Assembly (NCBI GenBank): GCA_046563655.1
Contig: JAJCTO010000013.1
Span: 248,001 to 312,000 of the forward strand
Origin: Yuukianura sp. NJ FZ-2021
Lineage: Eukaryota
Direction of reading: 5' to 3'
DNA length: 64,000 bases
Shown here one piece after another: positions 18,001-64,000 of this stretch (positions within the stretch are counted from its first letter, which is position 1; every line of letters begins with the position of its first letter). Position numbers and translations under genes: made by a program. The notes beneath the pieces are model-generated. The model was not told the origin of the DNA, made no database searches, and saw only the letters and a list, made by a program, of their open reading frames with translations.

Positions 18001-18073
18001 GGTATAAACTAATGTGGGAACTATACAACGAAGTTTTAAACATACTGAAAATTGGAATTTATGCCTTGTTATT
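1..18073. repeat. ~508-bp tandem satellite array, block 1 (~35.5 monomers; continues beyond the window start)
   Basis: The same ~508-bp unit (cggcaatggaacttcagggg...aatgactcaga) recurs every 506-509 bp. ORF-track starts at 247, 755, 1263... confirm the period. Confidence 0.98.
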
Positions 18074-19131: not shown

Positions 19132-19145
19132 TTATTCCCCAACTT
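19132..19145 (-). other. Polypurine tract of element 1
   Basis: Minus strand reads AAGTTGGGGAATAA immediately before the TGT start of the 3' LTR. Confidence 0.7.
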
Positions 19146-20958: not shown

Positions 20959-20996
20959 TCTCGAGGTTATTTACTCAAATCTCTTCTCCTTTTGCG

Positions 20997-23317: not shown

Positions 23318-23825
23318 GGAGCCTTAGATGGTTCCCGTTAAGTCGAGACTTGGGAACTACTTCTCTCCCGTTTAGAAGTTGGAAGTAAAATAAGACGATC
23401 AGACCTGCCCACCTTCGTGGTCGTACTAGTGTGCTGGCTTTTCCTTGCCACACGATCGTCCTTCACAGTGGATTGGATGGAGGTTGAACTGTGTCAACCA
23501 GTACCGCTGGTATAGTAATGATGTCTGGATTCGTTGGAGTGGTGCTTGACCCTGCTTGTGTGCCTGAAGTGACTTCCTCCGCTCGATTCTTAGGATACTT
23601 CGACTTAGACCGATTGTCCTTCAGCACCGAATCCAGTACAGTAAACGAAAATTCCGGTGTTCCTCGTTCTTTCTTTTCCCTGAACCGGAATCACCAGTAC
23701 TCGTGCCCTCAAATTAGGCACAGTACCTTAATCAAAATAATACCATGAGTTCACTCATGTGACTCGATAATTAATCTCGGAAATTCAAAACATGGATTTT
23801 TTTTTTACTACTTTTAATTGGATAA

Positions 23826-25187: not shown

Positions 25188-26972
25188 TTCTTCGCTCCTT
25201 TTCTTCTTCTCCTGGAAGGTTACGTTTGGAGTGAATACCCCTCCTTCAATCCTTGAAGGTAGAATCTACTTAATGCTAGATCCTAACACCCCTGGCAAGG
25301 TCTCCTGCAGTAGGTTCAGTCCCCTCCCAGTCCAAAATCTCGAGGTAAATTACAATAAGGCTCCCTTCCTTGAGCATGGGGTGTATTTGTCAACTTATGT
25401 GACATCATCAGTGAGATAGATGGCCTATCGGACTGGCTAGGTCCGGGCATGATGCTCCATGGACTGGGATCTGACCTTGAGTTGACGACAACTCTATGAA
25501 AATTTCTAAAGCCATTCTTCAGAGGGGCTGTGGTACCCTGCCCCTTCGCATCACTAGCGTTCTAAGGAACAGCTGCAGAGACTTGACCTTCTCCCTGTTC
25601 TTAACTATGCTAAGTCCATTGGTCTCAGGCGGAACCTTCGCCACCTCCGGACCTAGCGCGGTATCCTGTTGTCTAGATTCTAGCTTATGTCCTACCTAAT
25701 AGCAAGTTTCAGCTGGTCATGACTCCAGCGTCCGCAAGTGTTCGGATTATCCTTCGACTAAGAGCAGTCATGGGGCATTCTCGCCAAATACCATGACCCC
25801 GGTCAAACATACACCAGTTGCTAAGGGTCTACCTCTTGACCCCGACTTGTCCCTAAAGGCGGGAAGCATCAAGTCCTTACGAGGACTCGGACCTAAAGCT
25901 ATTGTCCTTAAACAGTACTACATAGTCACAAGGTCTATCCTCCCTCGTGACGAAGTCATTTTTAAATTTTCGCAAATTGAGCGAAGGCTCCTCCCTTCAC
26001 TCTACTTTAAGTGTCGACTAACTGTAGGAAGGGTTCCCCCCTTCCACTCTACTCTTTAATTATGAAGTGAAAGTTTTGAGAAGAAAAGAAACAGAAGAAA
26101 GCTAAACGGGTTTCCGTCATTATTTTAAATTCAGTCTTAGAAACTTGTATGAGATCAGTAGATGATTACATTGTAGGGGTATAGTTACTTCTATACCAAA
26201 AGCTGTTGAGGTCTAGAGAGGTCATAACGTCAAAAGCCTTTTTCTAAATGCGAATTTACGTTAATCCTGTCTATGTTTGAAAAGACACTAAACGAAAAGA
26301 TAAATTGAAATTTTGAAACATTGAAAAATTGAAACTAAATTCGAAATTCAAAAATTTGTCATTGCATCTCCATGCATGAATTCTACTAGTTTGAATTTTG
26401 AGTGTTCGCGCCGAAATTCTGTTCAAAATTTTAATGAAACTTGTATAGTAGTTAATTAACTTATTATGACTTCTTCAGGGATTAATCAGACGTTATGCAA
26501 TTGTACTTTATTGAAATGAATCAAATCATATCAAATCAGCTGATAATTTTATGAAATATGAGTTTGCTAAAATTTGCACTATTTTTCGGCTTTTCGCAAA
26601 AACAGAATTATGAAATAGGAAGAGCATTAGATGTAACACATGAAACTTTAAAAATTTTGCTTAGAACTGACTACTGAACTGCAAGAAGATAAGACTTGAT
26701 GTTCGTCCATACATCCTACTTTAAATTTTCAAAATTTAAATTTTCGCGCCAAAAGTCATTCTTCAAAAGTTCTTCAGAAATGTGAAAGAGGACTTGCCAT
26801 TTAGGCTGTGGGCTATAGACCTACCCTTGCAAATAGTAAAAATTTTCAAATTCAAATTTTCCCGCCAAAGCGAGTTTCAAATTCTAAGAGCTGCTTTCTC
26901 CAGACGTTATGTTAAACGTTATTCTAGTTGACCTCGCTTGACCTTAAGTGAATCTAGGGACTATACAGAAGG

Positions 26973-26990
26973 ATCTCAGTAGAACCTCCA
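26973..26990 (-). promoter_or_regulatory. Primer-binding site, tRNA-Gln type
   Basis: Minus strand TGGAGGTTCTACTGAGAT starts 1 nt after the 5' LTR. It is complementary (two G-U pairs) to the conserved metazoan tRNA-Gln 3' end ATCTCGGTGGAACCTCCA. Confidence 0.8.
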
Positions 26991-26991
26991 T

Positions 26992-28048
26992 TGAAACGGG
27001 GTGATTTTCTTATGCTCCATTGTTGCGTAAACCTAACACAAATACTATCCTTTGATTGTCCTCTGAAAACAACCAAACAGCTAATTGCAACAGCATAGCG
27101 GGTCTAACACCCGTCCCACCCTAATTGACCTGACAACTTGACCCCTCTGGGTCCCTGGATTCTAGTTAGCTCAATGACCTGAGTGGACCGTACTTCAGTC
27201 CCACTCCCTACCCTACCTTCCACTCTTTACGTGGGGCCGGTCCCACCCGACCCACATCACCTAAGTGTCTCAATATGCTCGTCTAGCTACCCTTATTAAA
27301 TCATGTTTGAGAAGGGAAGATTCCCTTACCTTGGTCAGCTACGGTTGACACCAGTCGAACCCTGGACAGCAGAATCAGCGGAAGTGACGGTGGCAGATGT
27401 GCAAGCTCTCGAAGACGAGGAATTGACGATCGGTGAAGAGAATTCCCAGGAAGAGTGTTTATTGTTCCCAAAAAGACTTATTCTAAAGAGCAACTTTACA
27501 ATCTAGCCAACTGATCTAAGAGAGAGAGATTCTTCCCCAAAAGCTAATTTAAAAATGACTTAACGCTAACAAGTTGCTACCTATATTTATAACCTCGCGC
27601 TTGACCCAGCTTGTCCTTCAACTGAGGGACGCTTAGAGACCTGAGTTCAAAGTTGGACGTTAATGACCAGGATCTCAGGTCCAGCTTTGTCATTAATGTC
27701 CAAGATTGAACAAAGTTACGAGCCTATGCAAATTGATAAAACAGGGATTTTGAATGGGAAAATCAACTCTCTTGCGAGTGGACACCCCATGTTTGACAGA
27801 TGTCAAACTTGCTGAGCAAGTTGTTTTACATGACAAGTCCAAAGGACTTGTCAAATCACCTTTTCTTATCATAAGTCTTGAGACCTCCTGTCTCAATTTC
27901 CCAACTTTCCTTAATTATCAATTTGCATACTCGACATGTCTCTTACCCGGTTTTAACTAGTTTTGTCTTAACTTAATTAGCCGTCCGAATTCGGCCCAAC
28001 TTCAAATCAATTGATTGATTTGGAGATGGCTCAAAATCCGACGTTACA
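26992..28048 (-). repeat. 5' LTR of element 1 (1057 bp)
   Basis: Minus strand TGTAACG...TTTCA followed by the PBS. Contains minus-strand TATAAATA (27584-27591) and, downstream of it, AATAAA (27458-27463). Confidence 0.95.
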
Positions 28049-31000
28049 TATTGCGTCTAACCATCTTCATGGAACGCATCTAATACCGGTCCACTTTGTC
28101 GTAGTGCATCAACGACTATTACACACGGTAAACCACTTGTTGTCAGCATTCATCTTTGAGCACAAAGGAGGAGTGCCGGTGAAATGACAAGCTCGTCCTC
28201 ACTACAGATACCAACCAGTACTCATTTTGACACTATGAATCACAATGACTCAGACGGCAATGGAACTTCAGGGGAAATCCCATTATTACATTGTCTAAAT
28301 CAAAATGAAACATTCCGCATTATTTGTTATCTTGATTAGAATTTTTAGGAAATAATTTTTTATGTCATACTACCACCTTGCACTTCCAATAAAGCACAAC
28401 TGAATAACTGGTGTTCAACAACAATCTGGAATTATATTTTAGCCCAACTCCACTATGCAACAAGTGCATAAATCTAACTGTCATTTTGGTATAAACTAAT
28501 GTGGGAACTATACAACGAAGTTTTAAACATACTGAAAATTGGAATTTATGCCTTGTTATTGCTTCTAACCATCTTCATGGAACGCATCTAATACCGGTCC
28601 ACTTTGTCGTAGTGGATCAACGACTATTACACACAGTGAACCACTTGTTGTCAGCCTTCATCTTTGAGCACAAAGGAGAAGTGCCGGTGAAATGACAAGC
28701 TCGTCCTCACTACAGATACCAACCAATACTCATTTTGACACTATGAATCACAATGACTCAGACGGCAATGGAACTTCAGGGAAATCCCATTATTACATTG
28801 TCTAAATCAAAATGAAACATTCCGCATTATTTGTTATCTTGATTAGAATTTTTAGGAAATAATTTTTTATGTCGTACAACCACCCTGCACTTCCAATAAA
28901 GCACACCTGAATAACTGGTGTTCAACAATAATCTGGAATTATATTTTAGCCCAAGTCCACTATGCAACAAGTGCATAAATCTAACTGTCATTTTGGTATA
29001 AACTAATGTGGGAACTATACAACGAAGTTTTAAACATACTGAAAATTGGAATTTATGCCTTGTTATTGCGTCTAACCATCTTCATGGAACGCATCTAATA
29101 CCGGTCCACTTTGTCGTAGTGCATCAACGACTATTACACACAGTGAACCACTTGTTGTCAGCCTTCATCTTTGAGCACAAAGGAGAAGTGCCGGTGAAAT
29201 TACAAGCTCGTCCTCACTACAGATACCAACCAATACTCATTTTGACACTATGAATCACAATGACTCAGACGGCAATGGAACTTCAGGGGAAATCCCATTA
29301 TTACATTGTCTAAATCAAAATGAAACATTCCGCATTATTTGTTATCTTGATTAGAATTTTTAGGAAATAATTTTTTATGTCATACTACCACCTTGCACTT
29401 CCAATAAAGCACAACTGAATAACTGGTGTTCAACAATAATCTGGAATTATATTTTAGCCCAACTCCACTATGCAACAAGTGCATAAATCTAACTGTCATT
29501 TTGGTATAAACTAATGTGCGAACTATACAACGAAGTTTTAAACATACTGAAAAATGGAATTTATGCCTTGTTAGCGCTTCTAACCATCTTCATGGAACGC
29601 ATCTAATACCGGTCCACTTTGTCGTAGTGCATCAACGACTATTACACACGGTAAACCACTTGTTGTCAGCCTTCATCTTTGAGCACAAAGTAGAAGTGCC
29701 GGTGAAATGACAAGCTCGTCCTCACTACAGATACCAACCAGTACTCATTTTGACACTATGAATCACAATGACTCAGACGGCAATGGAACTTCAGGGGGAA
29801 TCCCATTATTACATTGTCTAAATCAAAATGAAACATTCCGCATTATTTGTTATCTTGATTAGAATTTTAGGAAATAATTTTTTATGTCGTACAACCACCC
29901 TGCACTTCCAATAAAGCACACCTGAATAACTGGTGTTCAACAATAATCTGGAATTATATTTTAGCCCAACTCCACTATGCAACAAGTGCATAAATCTAAC
30001 TGTCATTTTGGTATAAACTAATGTGGGAACTATACAACGAAGTTTTAAACATACTGAAAATTGGAATTTATGCCTTGTTATTGCGTCTAACCATCTTCAT
30101 GGAACGCATCTAATACCGGTCCACTTTGTCGTAGTGCATCAACGACTATTACACACGGTAAACCACTTGTTGTCAGCATTCATCTTTGAGCACAAAGGAG
30201 AAGTGCCGGTGAAATGACAAGCTCGTCCTCACTACAGATACCAACCAGTACTCATTTTGACACTATGAATCACAATGACTCAGACGGCAATGGAACTTCA
30301 GGGGAAATCCCATTATTACATTGTCTAAATCAAAATGAAACATTCCGCATTATTTGTTATCTTGATTAGAATTTTTAGGAAATAATTTTTTATGTCGTAC
30401 AACCACCCTGCACTTCCAATAAAGCACACCTGAATAACTGGTGTTCAACAATAATCTGGAATTATATTTTAGCCCAACTCCACTATGCAACAAGTGCATA
30501 AATCTAACTGTCATTTTGGTATAAACTAATGTGGGAACTATACAACGAAGTTTTAAACATACTGAAAATTGGAATTTATGCCTTGTTATTGCTTCTAACC
30601 ATCTTCATGGAACGCATCTAATACCGGTCCACTTTGTCGTAGTGCATCAACGACTATTACACACGGTAAACCACTTGTTGTCAGCCTTCATCTTTGAGCA
30701 CAAAGGAGAAGTGCCGGTGAAATGACAAGCTCGTCCTCACTACAGATACCAACCAATACTCATTTTGACACTATGAATCACAATGACTCAGACGGCAATG
30801 GAACTTCAAGGGAAATCCCATTATTACATTGTCTAAATCAAAATGAAACATTCCGCATTATTTGTTATCTTGATTAGAATTTTTAGGAAATAATTTTTTA
30901 TGTCGTACAACCACCCTGCACTTCCAATAAAGCACACCTGAATAACTGGTGTTCAACAATAATCTGGAATTATATTTTAGCCCAACTCCACTATGCAACA

Positions 31001-47737: not shown

Positions 47738-48100
47738 TGTAACGCCTCGACGTCACGGTCAGCCATGTGTAACGCCCTACGACGCTAAACAACTGAAAAA
47801 CACAACTGGAGCAAACACTGCCGCTCCGCACCAGACTACTCTCTGAGTCCGCAGACTCTCAGACCCAAATGACCCCAAACAATCACCACTGCTCACAACT
47901 ACATCGGCGAATAAATGTATGAAATATATTTATTCGTCGAGAATAAAATATATACAACAAACCTCCGTCTCCCGCAGAGACCAAAAACCAACTAAACTAA
48001 ACTAACTGAATCTCTCTCTCTACCACACCGTATCTCGAATCTCCCGCGGCTCATCTCCGCAACCTAACCTAACTAATCGCCGGAGTAGCAGACGCCAACA
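47738..48100 (-). repeat. 3' LTR of element 2 (363 bp)
   Basis: Direct repeat of 50600-50966. Adjacent 48101-48111 is a purine tract on the minus strand. Confidence 0.95.
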
Positions 48101-49611
48101 CATTCCTCTCCAGATGATGGGTGTCGAGCCTGACGACCCTGGCCGACATCCATCAGCGACAACTCCAAAGGCGACTGCGACTCTCGAATCTCTGCAGCTC
48201 CGTGGCCATCATCCTCATCCATGGACATCAGCGGACTCTTCATCATGGTAATCGTCAACCGCAGCATCCGATTCCTCCCGAGTGCTCCATCCAACACGGC
48301 AGGCACTTCCACATTCTTCAAATCACACACTAAATCACTTTTCACTTGAATGGAAGTTGTCAAGACGACTCCCTTTGTATCCACATCATCACTTGCACTT
48401 TTTAAATACACGTTCCACAAATTTCTTGTTAAAAAACTGAGTGCACTGCTCCTCCACAAACTTCCAGCACCACCTTCCTTCACTTTGCGGGACAGTGAGA
48501 CCCTCGGCTGAACTTGTGGACAATGAGCACCACTAAAACACAAATAAGCGTAGGCCAATAAATTGACTCCCATTAACTGCCACAGATTCTGAGTTCCACC
48601 TTCCTTCACTTTACGGGACAGTGAGACCCACGACTCAGAACTTGTGCACAGAGAACCGCCGTACTTCAACCAAAGAACCAATATTTTCACATCATCACTT
48701 TTGCACAAACTTTTCACTTTTTCAATTTTTAAATTTTGAGGGAATGAGACCCTGAAGAACACAATGCATTTAGCACAAGAAACGCTGCGAGCCAGCAATG
48801 CCAGGACAACAATCTTCAATTCAAATTTAAATTCACTTCCAATTTCTTCTTTCTTCTCACTTAGTACCGCAGCACTATAACACTCACTTTTTAGAACTTG
48901 AGTAACGCCGCACTTCAGCACTGCCGGGCTAACGTTCTCCATAATTTTAACTTTCACAATCAACACTTTCCCTAAAAACTCGCTTTTCGAAGCTTGAGTA
49001 ACGCCGCACTTCAGCACTGCCGGGCGAACGATCTCCTTAATTTTAACACTCAGAACTAACACTTTTTGTAAAAGCCCACATTTTGGAGCTTGAGCAACGC
49101 TGCGAGCCTCGCCGATTGTGGCTGGGACAACGTTCTCTGTCTTGGTAACTTTCATACCGAAGACTGTTTGTAGAAGCTCTCTTTTTGGAGCTTGAGTAAC
49201 GCTGCGAGCCTTGTCACTTGGGACCGGGACAACGTACTCTGGAGCGACGTCGGAAGATTGAGGCCTCGTTCCCGAACATCTCACCTTAATGAGGACTACT
49301 TTCAACCCCTCATTCTGCGTTAGTATGCCACCACCGTAGTCATACTCTTCTTTCAATTTTGCACATCTCACTATGCACTTCACTTCACTTCTCACTTCCT
49401 GGATCCACCACTTCAACCGCTTCTCCTCCAACTGTATATACAAATGATGCCAGTTGCTAAAACGCAACTCCATAGGCACTAACACTATTAATAATTTCAA
49501 CTGTGCAAAAATTTTTACAATAATGAGTGATTCACCACACTCAATTTCCACAGTCACCAAAACTTTCAACTCAAAACTGGAAAAACTCATAACTTTTCCA
49601 AAACTGCCCAA
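48073..49611 (-). CDS. Long Val/Lys/Ser-rich ORF of unknown function, built partly from internal duplications, running into the 3' LTR
   Basis: 512 open codons (TTG start; first ATG ~49590). Repeated peptides ARSV.QAPK, AVLKCGVTQ and VSLSRKVKEGG. No domain recognised. Confidence 0.3.
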   Translation of the reverse strand: MGSFGKVMSFSSFELKVLVTVEIECGESLIIVKIFAQLKLLIVLVPMELRFSNWHHLYIQLEEKRLKWWIQEVRSEVKCIVRCAKLKEEYDYGGGILTQNEGLKVVLIKVRCSGTRPQSSDVAPEYVVPVPSDKARSVTQAPKRELLQTVFGMKVTKTENVVPATIGEARSVAQAPKCGLLQKVLVLSVKIKEIVRPAVLKCGVTQASKSEFLGKVLIVKVKIMENVSPAVLKCGVTQVLKSECYSAAVLSEKKEEIGSEFKFELKIVVLALLARSVSCAKCIVFFRVSFPQNLKIEKVKSLCKSDDVKILVLWLKYGGSLCTSSESWVSLSRKVKEGGTQNLWQLMGVNLLAYAYLCFSGAHCPQVQPRVSLSRKVKEGGAGSLWRSSALSFLTRNLWNVYLKSASDDVDTKGVVLTTSIQVKSDLVCDLKNVEVPAVLDGALGRNRMLRLTITMMKSPLMSMDEDDGHGAAEIRESQSPLELSLMDVGQGRQARHPSSGEECVGVCYSGD

Positions 49612-49843
49612 AAACTGAAGAATTTCGTCCGCACTTAACTGTACACTATGGAGAATGATGGACGAACTGTCATTCCCCTCTATTAGTTTAAATTCTCTTG
49701 AACATTTCCATCTGCATCACAATCACTTTCCTCTCCATATTCGCCATACCCCTCTAAAACACTCCCAAAATAACTGCCATGAAAACCTCCACTTCCAAAA
49801 ATTTTTGCCGAGCGGAAGCCAACGGTGTTGACTCCCATAGATT

Positions 49844-50278
49844 TTAAATAATTTCCATGATTTTGGTGTCTCTCATGTGCCAACTTAATGTACTGCTCAC
49901 TTTGCTTGAATTAAAAATTTTTGATGGCACTTGTTCACATTTGATACATTTCTTGTTCACTTGTTCACATTTGTCACATATCTGGTTCACTTCAACTTCT
50001 GAGTCACACAACTTTTTCACATTAATGATACACGCTACTGCCAACTTCTTACTAGTGGCAGACTTTGGAACTTTCGACTTGGTTGGTGCCGAAGTGAGTT
50101 GCACGCTTTGCAGGGCCGAAACCAGCGCCTCTGTCGAATGTGCACTTCCACTTTCACTGGTAGCCACCGCAGCGACTCCCTCGGACACTTCTTGAACTAC
50201 CTCCTGAATGCTCTCCACGACTTTGTGCAATACCACATGCACAATTTTTTCTACATTACCTTTCTTGTATACTGCCAT
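49844..50278 (-). CDS. Hypothetical 144-aa protein in the gag position of element 2
   Basis: First substantial ATG ORF after the PBS, with a CDKC..KKCIKC cysteine cluster. No clear homology recognised. Confidence 0.3.
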   Translation of the reverse strand: MAVYKKGNVEKIVHVVLHKVVESIQEVVQEVSEGVAAVATSESGSAHSTEALVSALQSVQLTSAPTKSKVPKSATSKKLAVACIINVKKLCDSEVEVNQICDKCEQVNKKCIKCEQVPSKIFNSSKVSSTLSWHMRDTKIMEII

Positions 50279-50587
50279 GCTTGTCCTTGCTTCCTCTATT
50301 CACTGACGCACTACAATGAATGACATGTTCTACCGCAGCAGAAACTAGATCCTTCTTCTGTACCACAATGGTACTAAACAATCACTTTTTTTTTAACACT
50401 GAACATCACTAATTCACTGATTACTGGTCATTCGTGACCTATGACATGAGCGGAGGCCGCTGTTAGCGACTCCCTTAAGATGAATTTATGTAATACACAC
50501 TGTTTAGATGCAAAATTTGTCACAATTTTCACTTACTTTATCTTACTTGACCTGTGGTGACCTCTGAATCACTGGATCTGCACACGA

Positions 50588-50597
50588 ACGGTCGCCA
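50588..50597 (-). promoter_or_regulatory. Primer-binding site, tRNA-Arg type
   Basis: Minus strand TGGCGACCGT starts 2 nt after the 5' LTR and is complementary to the tRNA-Arg(TCG) 3' end ...ACGGTCGCCA. Confidence 0.75.
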
Positions 50598-50599
50598 TG

Positions 50600-50966
50600 T
50601 GTAACGCCTCGACGTCACGGTCAGCCATGTGTAACGCCCTACGACGCTAAACAACTGAAAAACACAACTGGAGCAAACACTGCCGCTCCGCACCAGACTA
50701 CTCTCTGAGTCCGCAGACTCTCAGACCCAAATGACCCCAAACAATCACCACTGCTCACAACTACATCGGCGAATAAATGTATGAAATATATTTATTCGTC
50801 GAGAATAAAATATATACAACAAACCTCCGTCTCCCGCAGAGACCAAAAACCAACTAAACTAAACTAACTGAATCTCTCTCTCTCTCTACCACACCGTATC
50901 TCGAATCTCCCGCGGCTCATCTCCGCAACCTAACCTAACTAATCGCCGGAGTAGCAGACGCCAACA
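50600..50966 (-). repeat. 5' LTR of element 2 (367 bp)
   Basis: Direct repeat of 47738-48100, followed on the minus strand by the PBS. Confidence 0.95.
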
Positions 50967-52467
50967 TATTTTACCCCAACTCGACTATGCAACAAGTGCA
51001 TAAATCTAACTGTCATTTTGGTATAAACTAATGTGGGAACTATACAACGAAGTTTTAAACATACTGAAAAATGGAATTTATGCCTTGTTATCGCTTCTAA
51101 CCATCTTCATGGAACGCATCTAATACCGGTCCACTTTGTCGTAGTGCATCAACGACTATTACACACGGTGAACCACTTGTTGTCAGCCTTCATCTTTGAG
51201 CACAAAGGAGAAGTGCCGGTGAAATGACAAGCTCGTCCTCACTACAGATACCAACCAGTACTCATTTTGACACTATGAATCACAATGACTCAGACGGCAA
51301 TGGAACTTCAGGGGAAATCCCATTATTACATTGTCTAAATCAAAATGAAACATTCCGCATTATTTGTTATCTTGATTAGAATTTTTAGGAAATAATTTTT
51401 TATGTCATACTACCACCTTGCACTTCCAATAAAGCACAACTGAATAACTGGTGTTCAACAATAATCTGGAATTATATTTTAGCCCAACTCCACTATGCAA
51501 CAAGTGCATAAATCTAACTGTCATTTTGGTATAAACTAATGTGGGAACTATACAACGAAGTTTTAAACATACTGAAAAATGGAATTTATGCCTTGTTATC
51601 GCTTCTAACCATCTTCATGGAACGCATCTAATACCGGTCCACTTTGTCGTAGTGCATCAACGACTATTAAACACGGTAAACCACTTGTTGTCAGCCTTCA
51701 TCTTTGAGCACAAAGGAGAAGTGCCGGTGAAATGACAAGCTCGTCCTCACTACAGATACCAACCAGTACTCATTTTGACACTATGAATCACAATGACTCA
51801 GACGGCAATGGAACTTCAGGGGAAATCCCATTATTACATTGTCTAAATCAAAATGAAACATTCCGCATTATTTGTTATCTTGATTAGAATTTTTAGGAAA
51901 TAATTTTTTATGTCATACTACCACCTTGCACTTCCAATAAAGCACAACTGAATAACTGGTGTTCAACAATAATCTGGAATTATATTTTAGCCCAACTCCA
52001 CTATGCAACAAGTGCATAAATCTAACTGTCATTTTGGTATAAACTAATGTGGGAACTATACAACGAAGTTTTAAACATACTGAAAAATGGAATTTATGCC
52101 TTGTTATCGCTTCTAACCATCTTCATGGAACGCATCTAATACCGGTCCACTTTGTCGTAGTGCATCAACGACTATTAAACACGGTAAACCACTTGTTGTC
52201 AGCCTTCATCTTTGAGCACAAAGGAGAAGTGCCGGTGAAATGACAACCTCGTCCTCACTACAGATACCAACCAGTACTCATTTTGACACTATGAATCACA
52301 ATGACTCAGACGGCAATGGAACTTCAGGGGAAATCCCATTATTACATTGTCTAAATCAAAATGAAACATTCCGCATTATTTGTTATCTTGATTAGAATTT
52401 TTAGGAAATAATTTTTTATGTCATACTACCACCTTGCACTTCCAATAAAGCACACCTGAATAACTCG
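50967..52467. repeat. ~508-bp satellite array, block 3 (~3 monomers)
   Basis: Same monomer, in register across both flanking insertions. Confidence 0.97.
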
Positions 52468-52516
52468 CTTTCACCTGCCGCAGCAGGTTTAAAAATTCAT
52501 AAGGTATTGTATATAT

Positions 52517-55500
52517 TCAAAGTAAGTAGATTTCGTAGAGTTCTTTCCCGGGAGGCAGTGTTCCCAGTATTGAAGCGGTGTTACCTCTTTGTATGGCGAT
52601 GCTTACGCGCTGAAGTAAAAAAGAAGTTGCTCGATTGTCTCCAGTTGATTCAGAAATTCGATGTCCAATGGATTTCAGAAGACGTAGTCCTTCATCACCA
52701 AACACACCCGAGGTCTCGACAGCTATAATGGAAACAATAAATCGTTTTTCGAGGTCGCGATAGATGTTGTGTTTGTGGATTTCGGCTAATGAAGACGGAT
52801 GGCCAAGCGAAGAGGAAGAAGTTGGAAGGTAGGAAGCTGCATAGGTATCCCGACAAGTGAAATCCCACACCAAACAACGCCCAGTCTTCCATGGGATGAG
52901 CGTCATGCCGTCTGGCCGTTTTCCATCTGCTCTTGAACATCCGGATGGTTCTTTAACGTTTGGTATGCCAGCTGAATGCAAAGCTCTGGAAATGATGTCG
53001 TTGATGGAGCCATGTCTAGAGTTTCTACCGGCGCTTCGAATGCAACTTAAGCCGTGTAGGCCGTCACTCGACACTGAAGTTCCACATTTGCAACGATGAG
53101 GCTGGCATACATTGGAGCCTAGGCGAAGACAGCAAGAGATTCTGAATGTTTCGTCAGAGAGTAGAGTTCCAAGCGGAGAGGAGGGAATCGCATGCAGCCA
53201 ATCGCCTGAGTGAGGGGCGGTTGCGGCCAACAATCGTGCTTTGTCAATCAGAGTGTTGCAATTTTCAAGCAGAGAAGTATAAATACGTTTGAAGATGATC
53301 GTTTCCCAAAGATTTTGTATTTTTGCGTCGTGAGGTGTTTCGAGACCCAATAGTGACCAATTGAGAGAAGCAAGGTCCAAAGAATTGTCGAAAGGAGAGA
53401 GATGTGGCGGAAGAAAGGCGGAGATAAGGTCGGCACAACTATTTACTGAGGCCAAAAATGAAAATGTAGCACAGTCCGTAGCGTGTCGTACACCCAAACC
53501 ACCTTGGTTCACAGGTAAGGAAGATTGTAGCCAGGCTTCATCGGTCAAGTGTGTGTTAATGATGGATTCCAAAACGGCGCGTAAGGATGAGTCGTAGGAT
53601 TGGAGAAGGTCAGTTTCTAGGAATGACGGCGAACATCTGAGAAAGTACAACAGTCTTGGTGTCGATATTGAGGCCCTGAGCAGGAAAAAAGCAACATGCG
53701 CAGGCAGGTAGGAAAGTCTGGAAGAGAGTTTCTTGAAGTCTTCAGTTTTGGATTGAAGAATTCGACGAGAAGAGTCCTTGAAGAGCGGAGCTCCCAGAAG
53801 TTCAGATTGGCAGTTGTTGGGAAAGACAAAATCTTGTGAAACTGAACGGAAGGAGTTGGAGATAGAGTGTGTTTCAGTTTGATCCGCGGCAAGAATGATG
53901 ACTTCGCATTTTTGCAAGTTAAGATGTAATCCAAGAGAGGAAGCATGGGATTGGATGATCTTGAGATTTGACAGCACAACATCTGGGGTATCAGCGATGG
54001 TGGCGTCATCTAGGTACCAAGCATTGAATTCTGTTGTCAACGACGAGGCTAACGGATGTATTGTTAAGGCAAACAGTGCTGGTCCTAGGGGATCCCCCTG
54101 CTGCACGCCTAGTTTGGACTTGAAACAACAGGAATCGTAGAAAAGATCAGAATCATGTAAGTAGGCTTGAGAGATAAAGTTGAAAAACTCGGGAAGGTGT
54201 TGTTTCACAGCGTCAAGCATCTTGTCTCTTCTAAGGAGATTGAAAGCGTTCCGAAAATCCATCTTTAGTAGAACCTTTGGTGAGGAGTGATTGGCGTTGC
54301 AAAAAATCCTAGCGGCATGGGCGACAGCTTCTGCTCCATTTTTGACACCGACACCAACTTGGATTGGACTCAAGACGGACGAAATGACATTCATTGAACG
54401 ATACAGGATCAGTTTCGAGACGAGGCGTCTCCACGTGAGGCCAACGGCAATTGGTCGGATTCCGCCCTTCTTCTTCTGAATTGCGATGAGAGATGCCCCA
54501 AAAAAGATTGGTCTGATGTCATCGGGAAGAGATCCATTTGAAATGAGGTTACATAGTTTTGAAATTGATGACAGGAGTCTTGAACCGGCGTCACCTGCTG
54601 ATTTGGAGATTAGCTCCTTCAAAATTTGAGGACGAAGGGAGTCCAGGCCGCCAGAGGAACCATTCGGGAAGGAAGAAACGCGTTTCTGGAAGTCAATGTC
54701 TTCGAAAACAGCTTCTTCTGATGTTGGAGGATCCGGAAAAGTGGTGGGTTGAGGATGTGCAGGGTGTAGTTGACTGAGAGCTTCAATAGTGGTGGAGTCA
54801 ACAGCAGCCAAGTGGTCATCTGAGCAGAGGATTCTAATGGCTCCACTAACGTCACCGTCTGCAACTTTGGATTGGACTAGATTAGAGTTGTTCCACAGTT
54901 GTGAGTTCTGATTGGAGCGTGGATGATGACATGTTGGTGGTAGTTCAAAATTACTTGCATTGTCGACATTTGATTTCACCCATGTGGTCAAATTTGTAAC
55001 GCGATCATCTTTAGTCGGAAGCTGGAAAGCGGCGTATCGAAAAATTAGAAGTTTCTCCCATGATTCTGATGTATTTTCGACAACTACTTCTTCGATGATG
55101 ATGGATAGTTTTGATGCAGCTACTTGTCTTGCTCCCTTTGGAATGTGCTTTAGGGTTTGAACCGAATTTCTCAAATCAGCGAAACGAAGTCCTAGGGGAA
55201 GCTTATTGGATGATTCTGTCGAGGGGTTAGACCATGTTACACCGACGTAGGATTGTCCGCTGTGTTTTCGTCCTCCAGCCCGTGTTTTGGTGACGTCGGG
55301 AAAGATTTCTAGGAGTTTGGTTCCAATTGTGGCGTCAGCAAGGGGACGAATCTGAATCGACGAGCAGAAACTGTGATACTTCTCTTTAAAGTCTTGTTTC
55401 TTGATCATTCCTCCGGAGCATAGTCGCATGTTGGAACAAATCCAGTTGTCAGTTATCTTTGAGATTTGTGATTTGGAATGGTTATTGGAGGCATTGGAGA

Positions 55501-56179
55501 CGCGTTGGTCGCTGGCTGGAACTGAGTGAGGACAGGAAGGGTCTTCGTTGGATGCAGGAACGGACGAAGAAGAGGAGAGAGAGAGATTTGATGCTCGAAA
55601 TGAAGATAAAGACAAACTGGAAGCATCTTCGTTGGGAACAGGAATTGACGACGAACAGGAAGCAATTTCATTGGTAACAGGGACTGTTGACAAACTTGAA
55701 GCATCTTCATTGGTAACAGGAACCGACAATAGACTGGAAGCATCTTCATTGGGAACAGGAAAAGACAACAAACTGGAAGCATCTTCATTGGTACCAGGAA
55801 CAGTTGACAAACTGGAAGCATCTTTATTAGTAACAGGAACCGACAATAGACTGGAAGCATCTTCATTAGGAGCAGGAACAGACAACAAACTGGAGGCATC
55901 TTCATTTGGAGCATCAACTGGCAACGAACTGGAAGCATTTTCATTGGTAACAGGAACTGAAGATGAACTGGAAGCAATTACAATGTTAGGCGATGAAAAA
56001 CTTGAGGTGAATGCATTGACGACTGGGTCTGATGGAAAACTAGAAACGGCATTGTTGGATGTAGGAACTGTTGAAGATATCAATTTCACTTTTGGAGCTG
56101 AAGAGGATTCAGGAGAAGGAGAAATTGCGATGGACGATGATTTCATTTTACTTCTGTTTTTTAATTTCCGTTGAGGCAT
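52517..56179 (-). CDS. Polyprotein: Ser-rich repeats, RFX-like winged helix, reverse transcriptase, CCHC knuckle, RLE endonuclease (1220 aa)
   Basis: RT motifs KKKGGIRPIAVG, MDFRNAFN, GVQQGDPLGP, WYLDD; zinc knuckle CKC..HGLSC; RH..IND; RLE KRPDG..WDFTCRDT..E..K; CRE-typical C-terminus QRVSIAIQRGN. Confidence 0.95.
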   Translation of the reverse strand: MPQRKLKNRSKMKSSSIAISPSPESSSAPKVKLISSTVPTSNNAVSSFPSDPVVNAFTSSFSSPNIVIASSSSSVPVTNENASSSLPVDAPNEDASSLLSVPAPNEDASSLLSVPVTNKDASSLSTVPGTNEDASSLLSFPVPNEDASSLLSVPVTNEDASSLSTVPVTNEIASCSSSIPVPNEDASSLSLSSFRASNLSLSSSSSVPASNEDPSCPHSVPASDQRVSNASNNHSKSQISKITDNWICSNMRLCSGGMIKKQDFKEKYHSFCSSIQIRPLADATIGTKLLEIFPDVTKTRAGGRKHSGQSYVGVTWSNPSTESSNKLPLGLRFADLRNSVQTLKHIPKGARQVAASKLSIIIEEVVVENTSESWEKLLIFRYAAFQLPTKDDRVTNLTTWVKSNVDNASNFELPPTCHHPRSNQNSQLWNNSNLVQSKVADGDVSGAIRILCSDDHLAAVDSTTIEALSQLHPAHPQPTTFPDPPTSEEAVFEDIDFQKRVSSFPNGSSGGLDSLRPQILKELISKSAGDAGSRLLSSISKLCNLISNGSLPDDIRPIFFGASLIAIQKKKGGIRPIAVGLTWRRLVSKLILYRSMNVISSVLSPIQVGVGVKNGAEAVAHAARIFCNANHSSPKVLLKMDFRNAFNLLRRDKMLDAVKQHLPEFFNFISQAYLHDSDLFYDSCCFKSKLGVQQGDPLGPALFALTIHPLASSLTTEFNAWYLDDATIADTPDVVLSNLKIIQSHASSLGLHLNLQKCEVIILAADQTETHSISNSFRSVSQDFVFPNNCQSELLGAPLFKDSSRRILQSKTEDFKKLSSRLSYLPAHVAFFLLRASISTPRLLYFLRCSPSFLETDLLQSYDSSLRAVLESIINTHLTDEAWLQSSLPVNQGGLGVRHATDCATFSFLASVNSCADLISAFLPPHLSPFDNSLDLASLNWSLLGLETPHDAKIQNLWETIIFKRIYTSLLENCNTLIDKARLLAATAPHSGDWLHAIPSSPLGTLLSDETFRISCCLRLGSNVCQPHRCKCGTSVSSDGLHGLSCIRSAGRNSRHGSINDIISRALHSAGIPNVKEPSGCSRADGKRPDGMTLIPWKTGRCLVWDFTCRDTYAASYLPTSSSSLGHPSSLAEIHKHNIYRDLEKRFIVSIIAVETSGVFGDEGLRLLKSIGHRISESTGDNRATSFLLQRVSIAIQRGNTASILGTLPPGKELYEIYLL
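55540..55985 (-). repeat. 39-bp coding minisatellite (13-aa unit SVPVTNEDASSLL, ~10 copies)
   Basis: The ggaagcatcttcatt motif recurs every 39 bp (~55620-55970) inside the CRE-like ORF. Confidence 0.85.
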
Positions 56180-56458
56180 ATCAGTCGTTATGGCGATGAG
56201 GTCACGGGTTCACGGAGTTGTTGAAAACTTTGAGCGTTGTTGATGCGCGAAGTGTGACTGGACGTCCGAGTGACGAAACTGGTCCGGAAAGGATGAAATG
56301 GTGACGTATCTTCCTGAAACCTGTCACAAGTTGATCAGCAAACGAAGCTCTTTCGGATGATATAAGCAAAAGTTGGATAGATTATGAATTAATGCTTTAA
56401 AAACTGTGAAAATGAGGAGCAAAGATTTCGTGTTTTCACTTTTTGTTGATCAATAAAT

Positions 56459-59400
56459 AATAACTCGTGTTCAACAATAATCTGGAATTATATTTTAGCC
56501 CAACTCCACTATGCAACAAGTGCATAAATCTAACTGTCATTTTGGTATAAACTAATGTGGGAACTATACAACGAAGTTTTAAACATACTGAAAAATGGAA
56601 TTTATGCCTTGTTATCGCTTCTAACCATCTTCATGGAACGCATCTAATGCCGGTCCACTTTGTCGTAGTGCATCAACGACTACTACACACGGTGAACCAC
56701 TTGTTGTCAGCCTTCATCTTTGAGCTCAAAGGAGAAGTGCCGGTGAAATGACAAGCTCGCCCTCAATACAGATACCAACCAGTACTCATTTTGACACTAT
56801 GAATCACAATGACTCAGACGGCAATGGAACTTCAGGGGAAATCCCATTATTACATTTTCTAAATCAAAATGAAACATTCCGCATTATTTGTTATCTTGAT
56901 TAGAATTTTTAGGAAATAATTTTTTATGTCATACTACCACCTTGCACTTCCAACAAAGCACACATGAGTAACTGGTGTTCAACAATAATCTGGAATTATA
57001 TTTTAGCCCAACTCCACTATGCAACAAGTGCATAAATCTAACTGTCATTTTGGTATAAACTAATGTGGGAACTATACAACGAAGTTTTAAACATACTGAA
57101 AAATGGAATTTATGCCTTGTTATCGCTTATAACCATCTTCATGGAACGCATCTAATACCGGTCCACTTTGTCGTAGTGCATCAACGACTATTACACACGG
57201 TAAACCACTTGTTGTCAGCCTTCATCTTTGAGCACAAAGGAGAAGTGCCGGTGAAATGACAAGCTCGTCCTCACTACAGATACCAACCAGTACTCATTTT
57301 GACACTATGAATCACAATGACTCAGACGGCAATGGAACTTCAGGGGAAATCCCATTATTACATTGTCTAAATCAAAATGAAACATTCCGCATTATTTGTT
57401 ATCTTGATTAGAATTTTTAGGAAATAATTTTTTATGTCATACTACCACCTTGCACTTCCAATAAAGCACAACTGAATAACTGGTGTTCAACAATAATCTG
57501 GAATTATATTTTAGCCCAACTCCACTATGCAACAAGTGCATAAATCTAACTGTCATTTTGGTATAAACTAATGTGCGAACTATACAACGAAGTTTTAAAC
57601 ATACTGAAAAATGGAATTTATGCCTTGTTAACGCTTCTAACCATCTTCATGGAACGCATCTAATACCGGTCCACTTTGTCGTAGTGCATCAACGACTATT
57701 ACACACGGTGAACCACTTGTTGTCAGCCTTCATCTTTGAGCACAAAGGAGAAGTGCCGGTGAAATGACAAGCTCGTCCTCACCAGAGATACCAACCAGTA
57801 CTCATTTTGACACTATGAATCACAATGACTCAGACGTCAATGGAACTTCAGGGGAAATCCCATTATTACATTGTCTAAATCAAAATGAAACATTCCGCAT
57901 TATTTGCTATCTTGATTAGAATTTTTAGGAAATAATTTTTTATGTCATACTACCACCTTGCACTTCCAATAAAGCACAACTGAATAACTGGTGTTCAACA
58001 ATAATCTGGAATTATATTTTACCCCAACTCCACTATGCAACAAGTGCATAAATCTAACTGTCATTTTGGTATAAACTAATGTGGGAACTATACAACGAAG
58101 TTTTAAACATACTGAAAAATGGAATTTATGCCTTGTTATCGCTTCTAACCATCTTCATGGAACGCATCTAATACCGGTCCACTTTGTCGTAGTGCATCAA
58201 CGACTATTAAACACGGTAAACCACTTGTTGTCAGCCTTCATCTTTGAGCACAAAGGAGAAGTGCCGGTGAAATGACAAGCTCGTCCTCACTACAGATACC
58301 AACCAGTACTCATTTTGACACTATGAATCACAATGACTCAGACGGCAATGGAACTTCAGGGAAATCCCATTATTACATTGTCTAAATCAAAATGAAACAT
58401 TCCGCATTATTTGTTATCTTGATTAGAATTTTTAGGAAATAATTTTTTGTCATACTACCACCTTGCACTTCCAATAAAGCACACCTGAATAACTCGTGTT
58501 CAACAATAATCTGGAATTATATTTTAGCCCAACTCCACTATGCAACAAGTGCATAAATCTAACTGTCATTTTGGTATAAACTAATGTGGGAACTATACAA
58601 CGAAGTTTTAAACATACTGAAAAATGGAATTTATGCCTTGTTATCGCTTCTAACCATCTTCATGGAACGCATCTAATGCCGGTCCACTTTGTCGTAGTGC
58701 ATCAACGACTCTTACACACGGTGAACCACTTGTTGTCAGCCTTCATCTTTGAGCACAAAGGAGAAGTGCCGGTGAAATGACAAGCTCGTCCTCACTACAG
58801 ATACCAACCAGTACTCATTTTGACACTATGAATCACAATGACTCAGACGGCAATGGAACTTCAGGGGAAATCCCATTATTACATTGTCTAAATCAAAATC
58901 GAACATTCCGCATTATTTGTTATTTTGATTAAAATTGTTAGGAAAGACTTTTTTATGTCATACTACCACCTTGCACTTCCAATAAAGCACACATGAGTAA
59001 CTGGTGTTCAACAATAATCTGGAATTATATTTTAGCCCAACTCCACTATGCAACAAGTGCATAAATCTAACTGTCATTTTGGTATAAACTAATGTGGGAA
59101 CTATACAACGAAGTTTTAAACATACTGAAAAATGGAATTTATGCCTTGTTATCGCTTATAACCATCTTCATGGAACGCATCTAATACCGGTCCACTTTGT
59201 CGTAGTGCATCAACGACTATTACACACGGTGAACCACTTGTTGTCAGCCTTCATCTTTGAGCTCAAAGGAGAAGTGCCGGTGAAATGACAAGCTCGCCCT
59301 CACTACAGATACCAACCAGTACTCATTTTGACACTATGAATCACAATGACTCAGACGGCAATGGAACTTCAGGGGATCCCATTATTACATTTTCTAAATC

Positions 59401-62400
59401 AAAATCGAACATTCCGCATTATTTGTTATTTTGATTAAAATTGCTAGGAAAGACTTTTTTATGTCATACTACCACCTTGCACTTCCAATAAAGCACACCT
59501 GAATAACTGGTGTTCAACAATAATCTGGAATTATATTTTAGCCCAACTCCACTATGCAACAAGTGCATAAATCTAACTGTCATTTTGGTATAAACTAATG
59601 TGGGAACTATACAACGAAGTTTTAAACATACTGAAAAATGGAATTTATGCCTTGTTATCGCTTCTAACCATCTTCATGGAACGCATCTAATACCGGTCCA
59701 CTTTGTCGTAGTGCATCAACGACTATTAAACACGGTAAACCACTTGTTGTCAGCCTTCATCTTTGAGCACAAAGGAGAAGTGCCGGTGAAATGACAAGCT
59801 CGTCCTCACTACAGATACCAACCAGTACTCATTTTGACACTATGAATCACAATGACTCAGACGGCAATGGAACTTCAGGGGAAATCCCATTATTACATTG
59901 TCTAAATCAAAATGAAACATTCCGCATTATTTGTTATCTTGATTAGAATTTTTAGGAAATAATTTTTTATGTCATACTACCACCTTGCACTCCCAATAAA
60001 GCACACCTGAATAACTCGTGTTCAACAATAATCTGGAATTATATTTTAGCCCAACTCCACTATGCAACAAGTGCATAAATCTAACTGTCATTTTGGTATA
60101 AACTAATGTGGGAACTATACAACGAAGTTTTAAACATACTGAAAAATGGAATTTATGCCTTGTTATCGCTTCTAACCATCTTCATGGAACGCATCTAATG
60201 CCGGTCCACTTTGTCGTAGTGCATCAACGACTATTACACACGGTGAACCACTTGTTGTCAGCCTTCATCTTTGAGCACAAAGGAGAAGTGCCGGTGAAAT
60301 GACAAGCTCGTCCTCACTACAGATACCAACCAGTACTCATTTTGACACTATGAATCACAATGACTCAGACGGCAATGGAACTTCAGGGGAAATCCCATTA
60401 TTACATTGTCTAAATCAAAATCGAACATTCCGCATTATTTGTTATTTTGATTAAAATTGTTAGGAAAGACTTTTTTATGTCATACTACCACCTTGCACTT
60501 CCAATAAAGCACACATGAGTAACTGGTGTTCAACAATAATCTGGAATTATATTTTAGCCCAACTCCACTATGCAACAAGTGCATAAATCTAACTGTCATT
60601 TTGGTATAAACTAATGTGGGAACTATACAACGAAGTTTTAAACATACTGAAAAATGGAATTTATGCCTTGTTATCGCTTATAACCATCTTCATGGAACGC
60701 ATCTAATACCGGTCCACTTTGTCGTAGTGCATCAACGACTATTACACACGGTGAACCACTTGTTGTCAGCCTTCATCTTTGAGCTCAAAGGAGAAGTGCC
60801 GGTGAAATGACAAGCTCGCCCTCAATACAGATACCAACCAGTACTCATTTTGACACTATGAATCACAATGACTCAGACGGCAATGGAACTTCAGGGGAAA
60901 TCCCATTATTACATTGTCTAAATCAAAATGAAACATTCCGCATTATTTGCTATCTTGATTAGAATTTTTAGGAAATAATTTTTTATGTCATACTACCACC
61001 TTGCACTTCCAATAAAGCACAACTGAATAACTGGTGTTCAACAATAATCTGGAATTATATTTTACCCCAACTCCACTATGCAACAAGTGCATAAATCTAA
61101 CTGTCATTTTGGTATAAACTAATGTGGGAACTATACAACGAAGTTTTAAACATACTGAAAAATGGAATTTATGCCTTGTTATCGCTTCTAACCATCTTCA
61201 TGGAACGCATCTAATACCGGTCCACTTTGTCGTAGTGCATCAACGACTATTAAACACGGTAAACCACTTGTTGTCAGCCTTCATCTTTGAGCACAAAGGA
61301 GAAGTGCCGGTGAAATGACAAGCTCGTCCTCACTACAGATACCAACCAGTACTCATTTTGACACTATGAATCACAATGACTCAGACGGCAATGGAACTTC
61401 AGGGGAAATCCCATTATTACATTGTCTAAATCAAAATGAAACATTCCGCATTATTTGTTATCTTGATTAGAATTTTTAGGAAATAATTTTTTGTCATACT
61501 ACCACCTTGCACTTCCAATAAAGCACACCTGAATAACTCGTGTTCAACAATAATCTGGAATTATATTTTAGCCCAACTCCACTATGCAACAAGTGCATAA
61601 ATCTAACTGTCATTTTGGTATAAACTAATGTGGGAACTATACAACGAAGTTTTAAACATACTGAAAAATGGAATTTATGCCTTGTTATCGCTTCTAACCA
61701 TCTTCATGGAACGCATCTAATGCCGGTCCACTTTGTCGTAGTGCATCAACGACTCTTACACACGGTGAACCACTTGTTGTCAGCCTTCATCTTTGAGCAC
61801 AAAGGAGAAGTGCCGGTGAAATGACAAGCTCGTCCTCACTACAGATACCAACCAGTACTCATTTTGACACTATGAATCACAATGACTCAGACGGCAATGG
61901 AACTTCAGGGAAATCCCATTATTACATTGTCTAAATCAAAATCGAACATTCCGCATTATTTGTTATTTTGATTAAAATTGTTAGGAAAGACTTTTTTATG
62001 TCATACTACCACCTTGCACTTCCAATAAAGCACACATGAGTAACTGGTGTTCAACAATAATCTGGAATTATATTTTAGCCCAACTCCACTATGCAACAAG
62101 TGCATAAATCTAACTGTCATTTTGGTATAAACTAATGTGGGAACTATACAACGAAGTTTTAAACATACTGAAAAATGGAATTTATGCCTTGTTATCGCTT
62201 ATAACCATCTTCATGGAACGCATCTAATACCGGTCCACTTTGTCGTAGTGCATCAACGACTATTACACACGGTGAACCACTTGTTGTCAGCCTTCATCTT
62301 TGAGCTCAAAGGAGAAGTGCCGGTGAAATGACAAGCTCGCCCTCACTACAGATACCAACCAGTACTCATTTTGACACTATGAATCACAATGACTCAGACG

Positions 62401-64000
62401 GCAATGGAACTTCAGGGGATCCCATTATTACATTTTCTAAATCAAAATCGAACATTCCGCATTATTTGTTATTTTGATTAAAATTGCTAGGAAAGACTTT
62501 TTTATGTCATACTACCACCTTGCACTTCCAATAAAGCACACCTGAATAACTGGTGTTCAACAATAATCTGGAATTATATTTTAGCCCAACTCCACTATGC
62601 AACAAGTGCATAAATCTAACTGTCATTTTGGTATAAACTAATGTGGGAACTATACAACGAAGTTTTAAACATACTGAAAAATGGAATTTATGCCTTGTTA
62701 TCGCTTCTAACCATCTTCATGGAACGCATCTAATACCGGTCCACTTTGTCGTAGTGCATCAACGACTATTAAACACGGTAAACCACTTGTTGTCAGCCTT
62801 CATCTTTGAGCACAAAGGAGAAGTGCCGGTGAAATGACAAGCTCGTCCTCACTACAGATACCAACCAGTACTCATTTTGACACTATGAATCACAATGACT
62901 CAGACGGCAATGGAACTTCAGGGGAAATCCCATTATTACATTGTCTAAATCAAAATGAAACATTCCGCATTATTTGTTATCTTGATTAGAATTTTTAGGA
63001 AATAATTTTTTATGTCATACTACCACCTTGCACTCCCAATAAAGCACACCTGAATAACTCGTGTTCAACAATAATCTGGAATTATATTTTAGCCCAACTC
63101 CACTATGCAACAAGTGCATAAATCTAACTGTCATTTTGGTATAAACTAATGTGGGAACTATACAACGAAGTTTTAAACATACTGAAAAATGGAATTTATG
63201 CCTTGTTATCGCTTCTAACCATCTTCATGGAACGCATCTAATGCCGGTCCACTTTGTCGTAGTGCATCAACGACTATTACACACGGTGAACCACTTGTTG
63301 TCAGCCTTCATCTTTGAGCACAAAGGAGAAGTGCCGGTGAAATGACAAGCTCGTCCTCACTACAGATACCAACCAGTACTCATTTTGACACTATGAATCA
63401 CAATGACTCAGACGGCAATGGAACTTCAGGGGAAATCCCATTATTACATTGTCTAAATCAAAATCGAACATTCCTCATTATTTGTTATTTTGATTAAAAT
63501 TGTTAGGAAAGACTTTTTTATGTCATACTACCACCTTGCACTTCCAATAAAGCACACATGAGTAACTGGTGTTCAACAATAATCTGGAATTATATTTTAG
63601 CCCAACTCCACTATGCAACAAGTGCATAAATCTAACTGTCATTTTGGTATAAACTAATGTGGGAACTATACAACGAAGTTTTAAACATACTGAAAAATGG
63701 AATTTATGCCTTGTTATCGCTTATAACCATCTTCATGGAACGCATCTAATACCGGTCCACTTTGTCGTAGTGCATCAACGACTATTACACACGGTGAACC
63801 ACTTGTTGTCAGCCTTCATCTTTGAGCTCAAAGGAGAAGTGCCGGTGAAATGACAAGCTCGCCCTCAATACAGATACCAACCAGTACTCATTTTGACACT
63901 ATGAATCACAATGACTCCGACGGCAATGGAATTTTGGGGGATCCCATTATTACATTTTCTAAATCAAAATCGAACATTCCGCATTATTTGTTATTTTGAT
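56459..64000. repeat. ~508-bp satellite array, block 4, with 3-mer/6-mer higher-order structure; continues beyond the window end
   Basis: Monomer variants recur with a 3043-bp period (e.g. 58081/61124, 59600/62643, 60616/63659). Confidence 0.97.

Follow-up and report, generated by a model that had tools for sequence, protein, structure and literature searches.

An RFX-type domain in the N-terminal slot of a CRE-like non-LTR retrotransposon

The analysis presented here places an RFX-type, predicted winged-helix DNA-binding domain (55229..55456, minus strand; amino acids 252-327, of a subtype ending in G-I/V-x-W) within the open reading frame of a full-length, intact non-LTR retrotransposon of the CRE-like, restriction-like endonuclease (RLE) type. 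The element spans 3,991 bp (52468..56458, minus strand) of the window, the 64,000-nucleotide stretch of Yuukianura DNA that was analysed. The combination of RFX, reverse transcriptase (RT) and RLE is a real domain architecture and apparently one that was previously unreported. The window copy is best read as an intact member of an active, multi-family CRE-like RLE lineage, with an RFX domain captured from a host RFX-family gene. As for function, the sequence evidence favors (at a probability of roughly 0.6) a role for the domain as a low-specificity grip on target DNA during target-primed reverse transcription (TPRT), interchangeable with a zinc finger.

Anatomy of the element and identity of its RFX domain

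The element lies in a 508-bp satellite array, whose left and right flanks occupy 50966..52458 and 56468..64000 (both plus strand), and it is bounded by two copies of a 9-bp TSD, AATAACTCG, at 52459..52467 (3' end) and 56459..56467 (5' end). Anchors in the array are spaced 4508 bp apart across the element versus 508 bp elsewhere, giving a net insert of exactly 4000 bp, and a copy on contig C6 is 97.3% identical over 3,979 bp. A single ORF of 1220 amino acids runs on the minus strand from the first ATG (56179) to a TGA (52517..56179), inside a stop-to-stop frame of 1230 codons (52517-56209; protein P0001), and it is in this frame that the peptide highlighted by the first-pass annotation was located. 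In 5' to 3' order and all on the minus strand, the element begins with a short AT-rich junction, followed by a conserved terminal motif, CACG(C/A)AA...GCTC (56416..56433; 12 invariant columns in 13 copies), which is probably an internal promoter or 5' module, and by a weakly constrained, Ser-rich N-terminal region containing about nine copies of a 13-residue (39-bp) repeat (55625..55948; TRF period 39). Next come the RFX domain, a conserved TL(K/R)xxPKGAR motif with which the RT N-terminal extension begins, downstream of the RFX or zinc-finger slot (55127..55159), and the RT core, in which PIAVG, DFRNAFN, QQGDPL and YLDD are all intact (53894..54481; RVT_1 match at residues 577-772, E 2.3e-17). 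A CCHC zinc knuckle motif, C-X1-C-X9-H-X3-C (53042..53092), a restriction-like endonuclease core motif, RH ... E ... RPD-X15-D (52862..53017), the stop codon and a 3'-UTR hairpin (52473..52488) complete the order. The element thus displays the features of the RLE type, a single ORF with RT and then a CCHC motif and a PD..D endonuclease, and TSDs, 5' truncation and A-rich tails are all present among its copies. The presence of RVT_1, CCHC and the endonuclease in the same ORF agrees with the initial assignment of the domain to a CRE-like non-LTR element, where the label "CRE-like" is a provisional one based on motifs.

The RFX pattern recognized in the first-pass annotation, for which a search with the Pfam RFX_DNA_binding profile had been suggested as a check, was borne out. 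PF02257 matches residues 252-325 (nucleotides 55235-55456) over 74 of its 79 positions (3-76), with E 4.1e-9 and 37.4 bits for the whole protein versus 9.6e-11 and 42.6 bits for the domain alone, and both scores exceed the curated cut-off of 27 bits. When the single domain was searched against the PDB with phmmer, RFX5 (8zjr) was matched at E 1.3e-7, while a profile of 18 element domains matched the solved structures of RFX5 and RFX1 (1dp7) at 3.8e-14 and 1.9e-8, respectively, with ARID2 as a weak match (0.02). Alignment of the element domains to a host RFX domain with hhalign yielded a probability of 98.4 over 76 columns. On these comparisons, a chance origin of the PF02257 match in a retrotransposon ORF can be set aside, and the profile matches to 8zjr and 1dp7, together with hhalign, imply a winged-helix fold for the element domain. 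RVT_1 and RFX_DNA_binding are the two Pfam families found in the 1230-codon ORF; neither the BCD dimerisation domain nor RFX5_N was matched by Pfam in P0001 at E 0.1, a PHD finger was likewise without a Pfam match in this protein, and its N-terminus contains no C2H2 zinc finger. As a homolog query, the RFX region alone returned 0 matches among 24 candidates, a search of longer proteins with the domain alignment returned 6, and an ESM Atlas search gave no usable match. A look-up for RNA data listed none in which the element occurs, a result with no bearing on its expression.

At the 3' end, the hairpin consists of a 6-bp stem with a loop of the UNCG type, and it is conserved in most families of the genome. 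Among 14 aligned 3' ends, 98% of cells are paired and 3 of 7 pairs exhibit changes on both sides, more than in any slid control, although the covariation reflects few events, as the double changes derive largely from one family. Many other copies continue from the hairpin to AATAAA and an A tail, whereas the window copy lacks a poly(A) tail. Five copies of one subfamily (L002, L004, L005, L026 and L029) differ in the 20-40 bases that separate the hairpin from the A tail, and these differing 3' ends, each with its own AATAAA, suggest that transcription ran on to poly(A) signals in the flanks (3' transduction).

Intact element ORFs are 96-97% identical to the window protein within its own family and 46-73% identical in other families, and both terminal motifs are conserved over the latter range. 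This conservation raises the alternative that the RFX domain binds the DNA or RNA of the element itself, at the 5' CACG..GCTC motif or the 3' inverted repeat, in autoregulation or second-strand synthesis. The core of the inverted repeat, TGCC-N3-GGCA, resembles an X-box, and the most divergent wing and the divergent hairpin occur in the same family. However, the inverted repeat has the hallmarks of an RNA stem-loop, with UNCG-type loops, a U-G pair and covariation; it is missing from RFX-bearing families such as L081/L068/L082, and none of the 42 metagenome 3' ends inspected contains it, including two that are RFX-bearing. The inverted repeat was rejected as an obligatory RFX site, and we regard binding to the element ends in any form as quite improbable.

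Copies, relatives and exchange at the N-terminal slot

Within the Yuukianura assembly (98.7 Mb, 22 contigs), 39 of the 43 PF02257 matches belong to element copies, and the remaining four are of host origin, two being RFX1-3-type genes and two being exons of an RFX5/7-like gene. The C-terminal region of the element has 110 matches scattered over the assembly contigs, and every full-length copy found in the assembly retains the RFX domain. RFX is a constant component of the retrotransposon lineage and not a one-off; an origin in which an insertion had disrupted a host RFX gene or become fused to it was excluded, as the fusion is found repeatedly, in 39 copies and also outside this species. The 39 to 4 excess of element-borne over host matches should also serve as a warning for annotation, as should the protein OXA61805 of Folsomia candida, an RFX-bearing relative named "RFX-like transcription factor daf-19". 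Together with OXA58286 of the same species, this protein is among the best 120 of 1050 relatives retrieved by a profile search of database proteins (8000 scored). Nine of these 120 carry an RFX domain according to precomputed PF02257 annotation and 12 according to an element-specific profile, with a springtail as the only named source, and 5 of 80 metagenome loci carry the domain as well. A PHD finger co-occurs in 6 of the 12 RFX-bearing relatives and a SAP domain in one, while PHD is also present in the zinc-finger relatives P0072 and P0083. The PHD, SAP, OTU and UCH domains of the relatives are located farther out than the slot or elsewhere. An OTU or UCH deubiquitinase, SAP or PHD domain was encountered in the related CRE-like proteins P0065, P0074, P0075, P0077, P0086, P0080, P0131 and P0143, which indicates a lineage that frequently picks up host domains.

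Relatives with a complete N-terminus usually encode a C2H2 or related zinc finger just before TL(K/R)xxPKGAR. The RFX domain occupies this slot; the first-pass annotation had named N-terminal C2H2 zinc fingers or Myb domains as the usual targeting modules of RLE-type elements. In a tree of 130 rows, built from an alignment that omitted the N-terminal module and labeled by regular expression as RFX (22), zinc finger (45), other (19) or truncated (44), all RFX rows fall within one clade (support 1.0), which also includes interleaved zinc-finger rows. Monophyly of the RFX-bearing elements was rejected (p-AU 1.4e-9; 34 rows, 18 of them RFX), ruling out a clade made up of RFX rows alone and requiring at least 3-4 changes, and their lack of monophyly indicates that the slot was exchanged repeatedly. 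In a tree of the domain itself (77 columns), 20 of the 21 element domains cluster apart from host RFX domains (UFBoot 90), and the element domains share a terminal G-I-x-W. The best-scoring donor candidates are RFX5/7-type and multi-RFX proteins, which the 77-column tree does not separate. The simplest reading of this history would be one RFX capture followed by repeated swaps with zinc fingers. Recombination between families is visible among copies of the genome: in L087/L090, dS is 0.14 in the RFX domain versus 1.1 in the RT, and in L070/L073 the RFX domains are identical and the upstream sequences unrelated. Both are recombinant families, in which 5' UTR and N-terminal segments were exchanged.

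The RFX domain is under purifying selection near the level of the RT. Of 11 family pairs, 7 gave an estimate, with a dN/dS of the domain of 0.11-0.21 (three others are saturated and one is identical); the corresponding ranges are 0.05-0.25 in the RT and 0.26-0.89 in the low-complexity region at the N-terminus (residues 12-245). It is conceivable that the domain is a passenger lacking a role in mobility, given that zinc-finger relatives manage without it and that many of its base-contact residues have drifted. Despite this, a dN/dS that is similar to the RT value and much lower than in the adjacent N-terminus, along with the retention of the domain in every full-length copy of the assembly and across lineages at ~40% identity, makes a passenger very unlikely.

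The drift of the contact residues deserves closer attention. RFX1 contacts DNA through nine residues, R19, K45, R48, R57, R58, G60, R62, K66 and Y67 (PMC12311785). Based upon the 1dp7 alignment, the window protein keeps R58, G60 and R62 and has K at R19, whereas the other five of nine (K45, R48, R57, K66 and Y67) are changed. Of the nine families of the genome, all have R62 and eight have R58, whereas none has Y at position 67 and one has K at position 45; K45, R58, G60, R62 and Y67 are all retained in 23 of 23 host RFX domains. RFX-bearing elements from other species are closer to the host (K45 in 10 of 12, Y67 in 7 of 12), and those with host-like contacts could possess a higher specificity. 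From homology and the net charge of the element domains (+3 to +8), DNA binding is predicted, with RNA binding being a conceivable alternative. Within the genome, the wing is well conserved as RAGGR(K/R)H, which could signal a specific ligand that a survey of 30 bp per side would miss.

Insertion sites and the 508-bp satellite

The first-pass annotation had envisaged that the captured domain gives the element a new target specificity, possibly for the satellite surrounding it. We surveyed the flanks of 93 insertion loci, comprising 73 evaluable of 76 submitted and 20 further short copies, and found the 508-bp satellite family in the flanks of five; the remaining 88 lie elsewhere. The window copy is inserted at monomer position 499-507, L072 at 11-25 in the opposite orientation, L128 at 409-424 and L114 at ~446-462 of a 76% variant, while the satellite flank of L121 (an 80% variant) is rearranged. 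These five insertions represent at least four families, both orientations and five different monomer positions, and only one of the six places occupied by the window's own subfamily (>=92% identity), the window itself, is in satellite. The sequence AATAACTCG, previously put forward as the site around which the domain might bind the monomer, turned out to be just the TSD of this copy and a minority monomer variant; its six occurrences in the window are confined to the TSDs and to a higher-order repeat of three monomers (~1522 bp) located to the right of the element (57993-64000).

Several of these observations could be viewed in favor of sequence-specific targeting by the RFX domain, for instance of the satellite. 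Copies from at least four families occur in satellite arrays, four of the five within a ~125-bp part of the monomer, and in R2 it is the N-terminal domains that set the target (PMC11204384). However, no other stretch of the monomer is as rich in A and T as this part, which also harbors the insertion of an unrelated LTR element; the monomer contains no X-box half-site, and, as described above, most loci and most places of the own subfamily are outside the satellite, with satellite insertions varying in position and orientation. The strict form of the satellite-targeting idea is refuted, satellite-specific targeting having been ruled out by 5 of 93 loci with differing positions and both orientations, and we give scarcely any credence to sequence-specific targeting by the domain in general.

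For the analysis of target sites, 38 of the 73 loci were kept and 35 dropped, the filter being a TSD of >=10 bp near both ends and without ambiguous tandem flanks; three of the 38 sites were added after visual inspection, and the set may include some errors. TSD length is 9-24 bp (median 12). No long shared motif exists among the 38 sites, and the information at the TSD start is concentrated at -4 to +2, corresponding to a 5-6 bp AT-rich nick preference, AA(C/T)|A(A/T). At comparable sites, defined as those with a non-A|A boundary, AA(C/T)|A was found in 16 of 26, versus 6.9% of such boundaries in local DNA, a control that allows for tail-induced boundary bias. An independent set was provided by the short copies, 11 of 20 of which passed the TSD filter: among their seven comparable sites, A(C/T)|A(A/T) occurs in five (p 3e-4) and AA(C/T)|A in three (p 0.009). 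The AAC|AA junction is also found in L235 and L242, which belong to the family whose wing diverges most, and its persistence there suggests the nuclease rather than the wing as its source. The nick preference includes AAC, the triplet with which the X-box half-site ends. Enrichment of this half-site was absent, with 2 of 38 targets versus 43 of 444 background windows (9.7%), and X-box targeting was rejected. A new target specificity conferred by the domain consequently found no support in the flanks, which reveal dispersed sites and a short AT-rich nick preference only.

Approximately 12 of the 73 loci are within tandem repeats (a raw count), and non-tandem DNA holds most insertions. Near-identical tandem arrays of element copies and satellite, with a period of ~4 kb, are found at L089-L091 (contig C4) and L094-L096 (contig C17), which are probably products of segmental duplication after insertion, and L065/L066 (contig C10) are a head-to-tail element pair. 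In the window, two unrelated LTR elements also interrupt the array, one of them at monomer position ~27. The element at 18073-28049 has 1060-bp LTRs that are 99.8% identical and ORFs encoding a gag of the Ty3 type, a dUTPase-like protein and a matrix metalloprotease that is complete, with both matrixin and hemopexin (E 1e-42), and with an RT or integrase family match in 0 of the four ORFs scanned. The second, at 47739-50966, is apparently non-autonomous, with LTRs of ~370 bp (TG...CA), a short TSD and a 547-codon ORF of no known family.

Proposed mechanism and comparison with known systems

Since copies land genome-wide, the RFX domain probably serves as an exchangeable means of holding DNA rather than as a device for finding the satellite. 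RLE elements move by TPRT, and mobilization of this element would presumably follow the same route. Firstly, the element protein would bind its own RNA via the 3' hairpin, and the endonuclease would nick the top strand at the loose site AA(C/T)|A(A/T). Secondly, the RFX domain would grip the target duplex, or nucleosomal DNA, via the wing arginines R58 and R62 and its basic surface, without reading an X-box, and a second nick ~9-15 bp away would then give rise to the TSD. The contribution of the domain may be one of affinity or positioning rather than a long recognition sequence, which would explain why it can be exchanged for a zinc finger. The N-terminal domains of R2 bind target DNA and determine the target (PMC11204384; PMC13188248).

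A different emphasis would make the domain a chromatin-directing module, which engages nucleosomal DNA in the manner of the RFX5 extended DBD and, together with the PHD finger that many relatives carry upstream, steers or enables insertion into nucleosomal or heterochromatic DNA. The best solved match of the domain is RFX5, in a structure that is a nucleosome complex (PMC12311785), and the PHD and SAP domains of the RFX-bearing relatives and the insertions within tandem repeats would fit such a role. However, the window protein has no PHD finger, PHD accompanies zinc-finger relatives too, and tandem repeats hold the minority of insertions, all of which render a chromatin-directing role unlikely. 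Rather low odds may likewise be given to a combined history, in which a single RFX5/7-like capture was followed by several zinc-finger exchanges through recombination and the domain acts with PHD as a nucleosome-engaging module enabling TPRT on chromatin. If true, a transcription-factor fold of unrelated origin could be plugged into an R2-like N-terminal slot, and lineages with host-like contacts may still read X-box-like DNA.

With respect to the low-specificity grip that we favor, comparison with known systems is instructive. The CRE clade comprises CRE1/2, SLACS, CZAR, Cnl1 and MoTeR/FoTeR as well as animal Cre families in Repbase. Like these, the element has a single ORF in which CCHC and an RH..E..RPD..D endonuclease come after RT, with the motifs in the same order, but it carries an RFX domain where CRE has an N-terminal zinc finger, and its insertions are dispersed as opposed to targeted to SL-RNA genes or telomeres. 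Insertion in the CRE clade is mostly target-specific (PMC4640811). In comparison with the SLACS/CRE endonuclease pattern, the motif order agrees, the element has RHG versus RHD/N, and its spacers of X9, X8 and X15 are 1-2 residues off X7-8, X9-10 and X12-14 (PMC12857005). R2 (PDB 9nl2, 9nl3, 9dou) also has, within a single protein, an N-terminal module for DNA binding together with RT, CCHC and RLE, with TPRT presumed for the element; however, RT similarity is weak (E ~1e-5), and the element has no ZF-Myb and no 28S rDNA site but clear TSDs. The element does not belong to the R2 clade. Nor is its protein an RFX transcription factor: it shares with RFX1 (1dp7), RFX5 (8zjr) and the RFX5/7 group a homologous 76-residue domain of predicted winged-helix fold with R58, G60 and R62, but differs in the absence of BCD/RFX5_N, the five changed contacts, the G-I-x-W signature and a separate cluster. 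The element behaves as a non-site-specific RLE retrotransposon and in this respect resembles HERO and Blattella BLAG, which also encode an RLE and insert at dispersed sites, although these are published as different clades, without mention of an RFX domain in the available parts of the reports (PMC4640811, PMC7650587).

A search of the open literature for RFX together with retrotransposons found no relevant paper, with Repbase Reports, Dfam and subscription journals, which may catalogue such an element, lying outside its scope. Titles and opening abstract lines of the CRE and springtail element literature name no RFX-bearing element, and "rfx" has 0 occurrences in the accessible text of a 2026 R2 survey (PMC13188248). 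The wider relevance of the element stems from the fact that N-terminal modules decide the insertion site of R2-type proteins, which are under development as gene-insertion tools. That an unrelated transcription-factor fold was swapped with zinc fingers more than once argues for a modular N-terminal slot, and the element offers a direct test of the role of an N-terminal domain in a non-site-specific RLE element.

Two further groups of RFX-bearing proteins were encountered along the way. A tandem-RFX family (P0002-P0007, P0009 and P0017; 570-1089 amino acids) contains 3-5 RFX domains per protein and no other notable Pfam domain, and one member is an "uncharacterized" protein of the crustacean Oratosquilla oratoria. 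In P0010/P0039, an RFX domain of the element type (GITW) is joined to a different cysteine-containing region, which presumably resembles the N-terminus of P/THAP9-like transposases, and this fusion suggests that the RFX module may exist in another transposon class.
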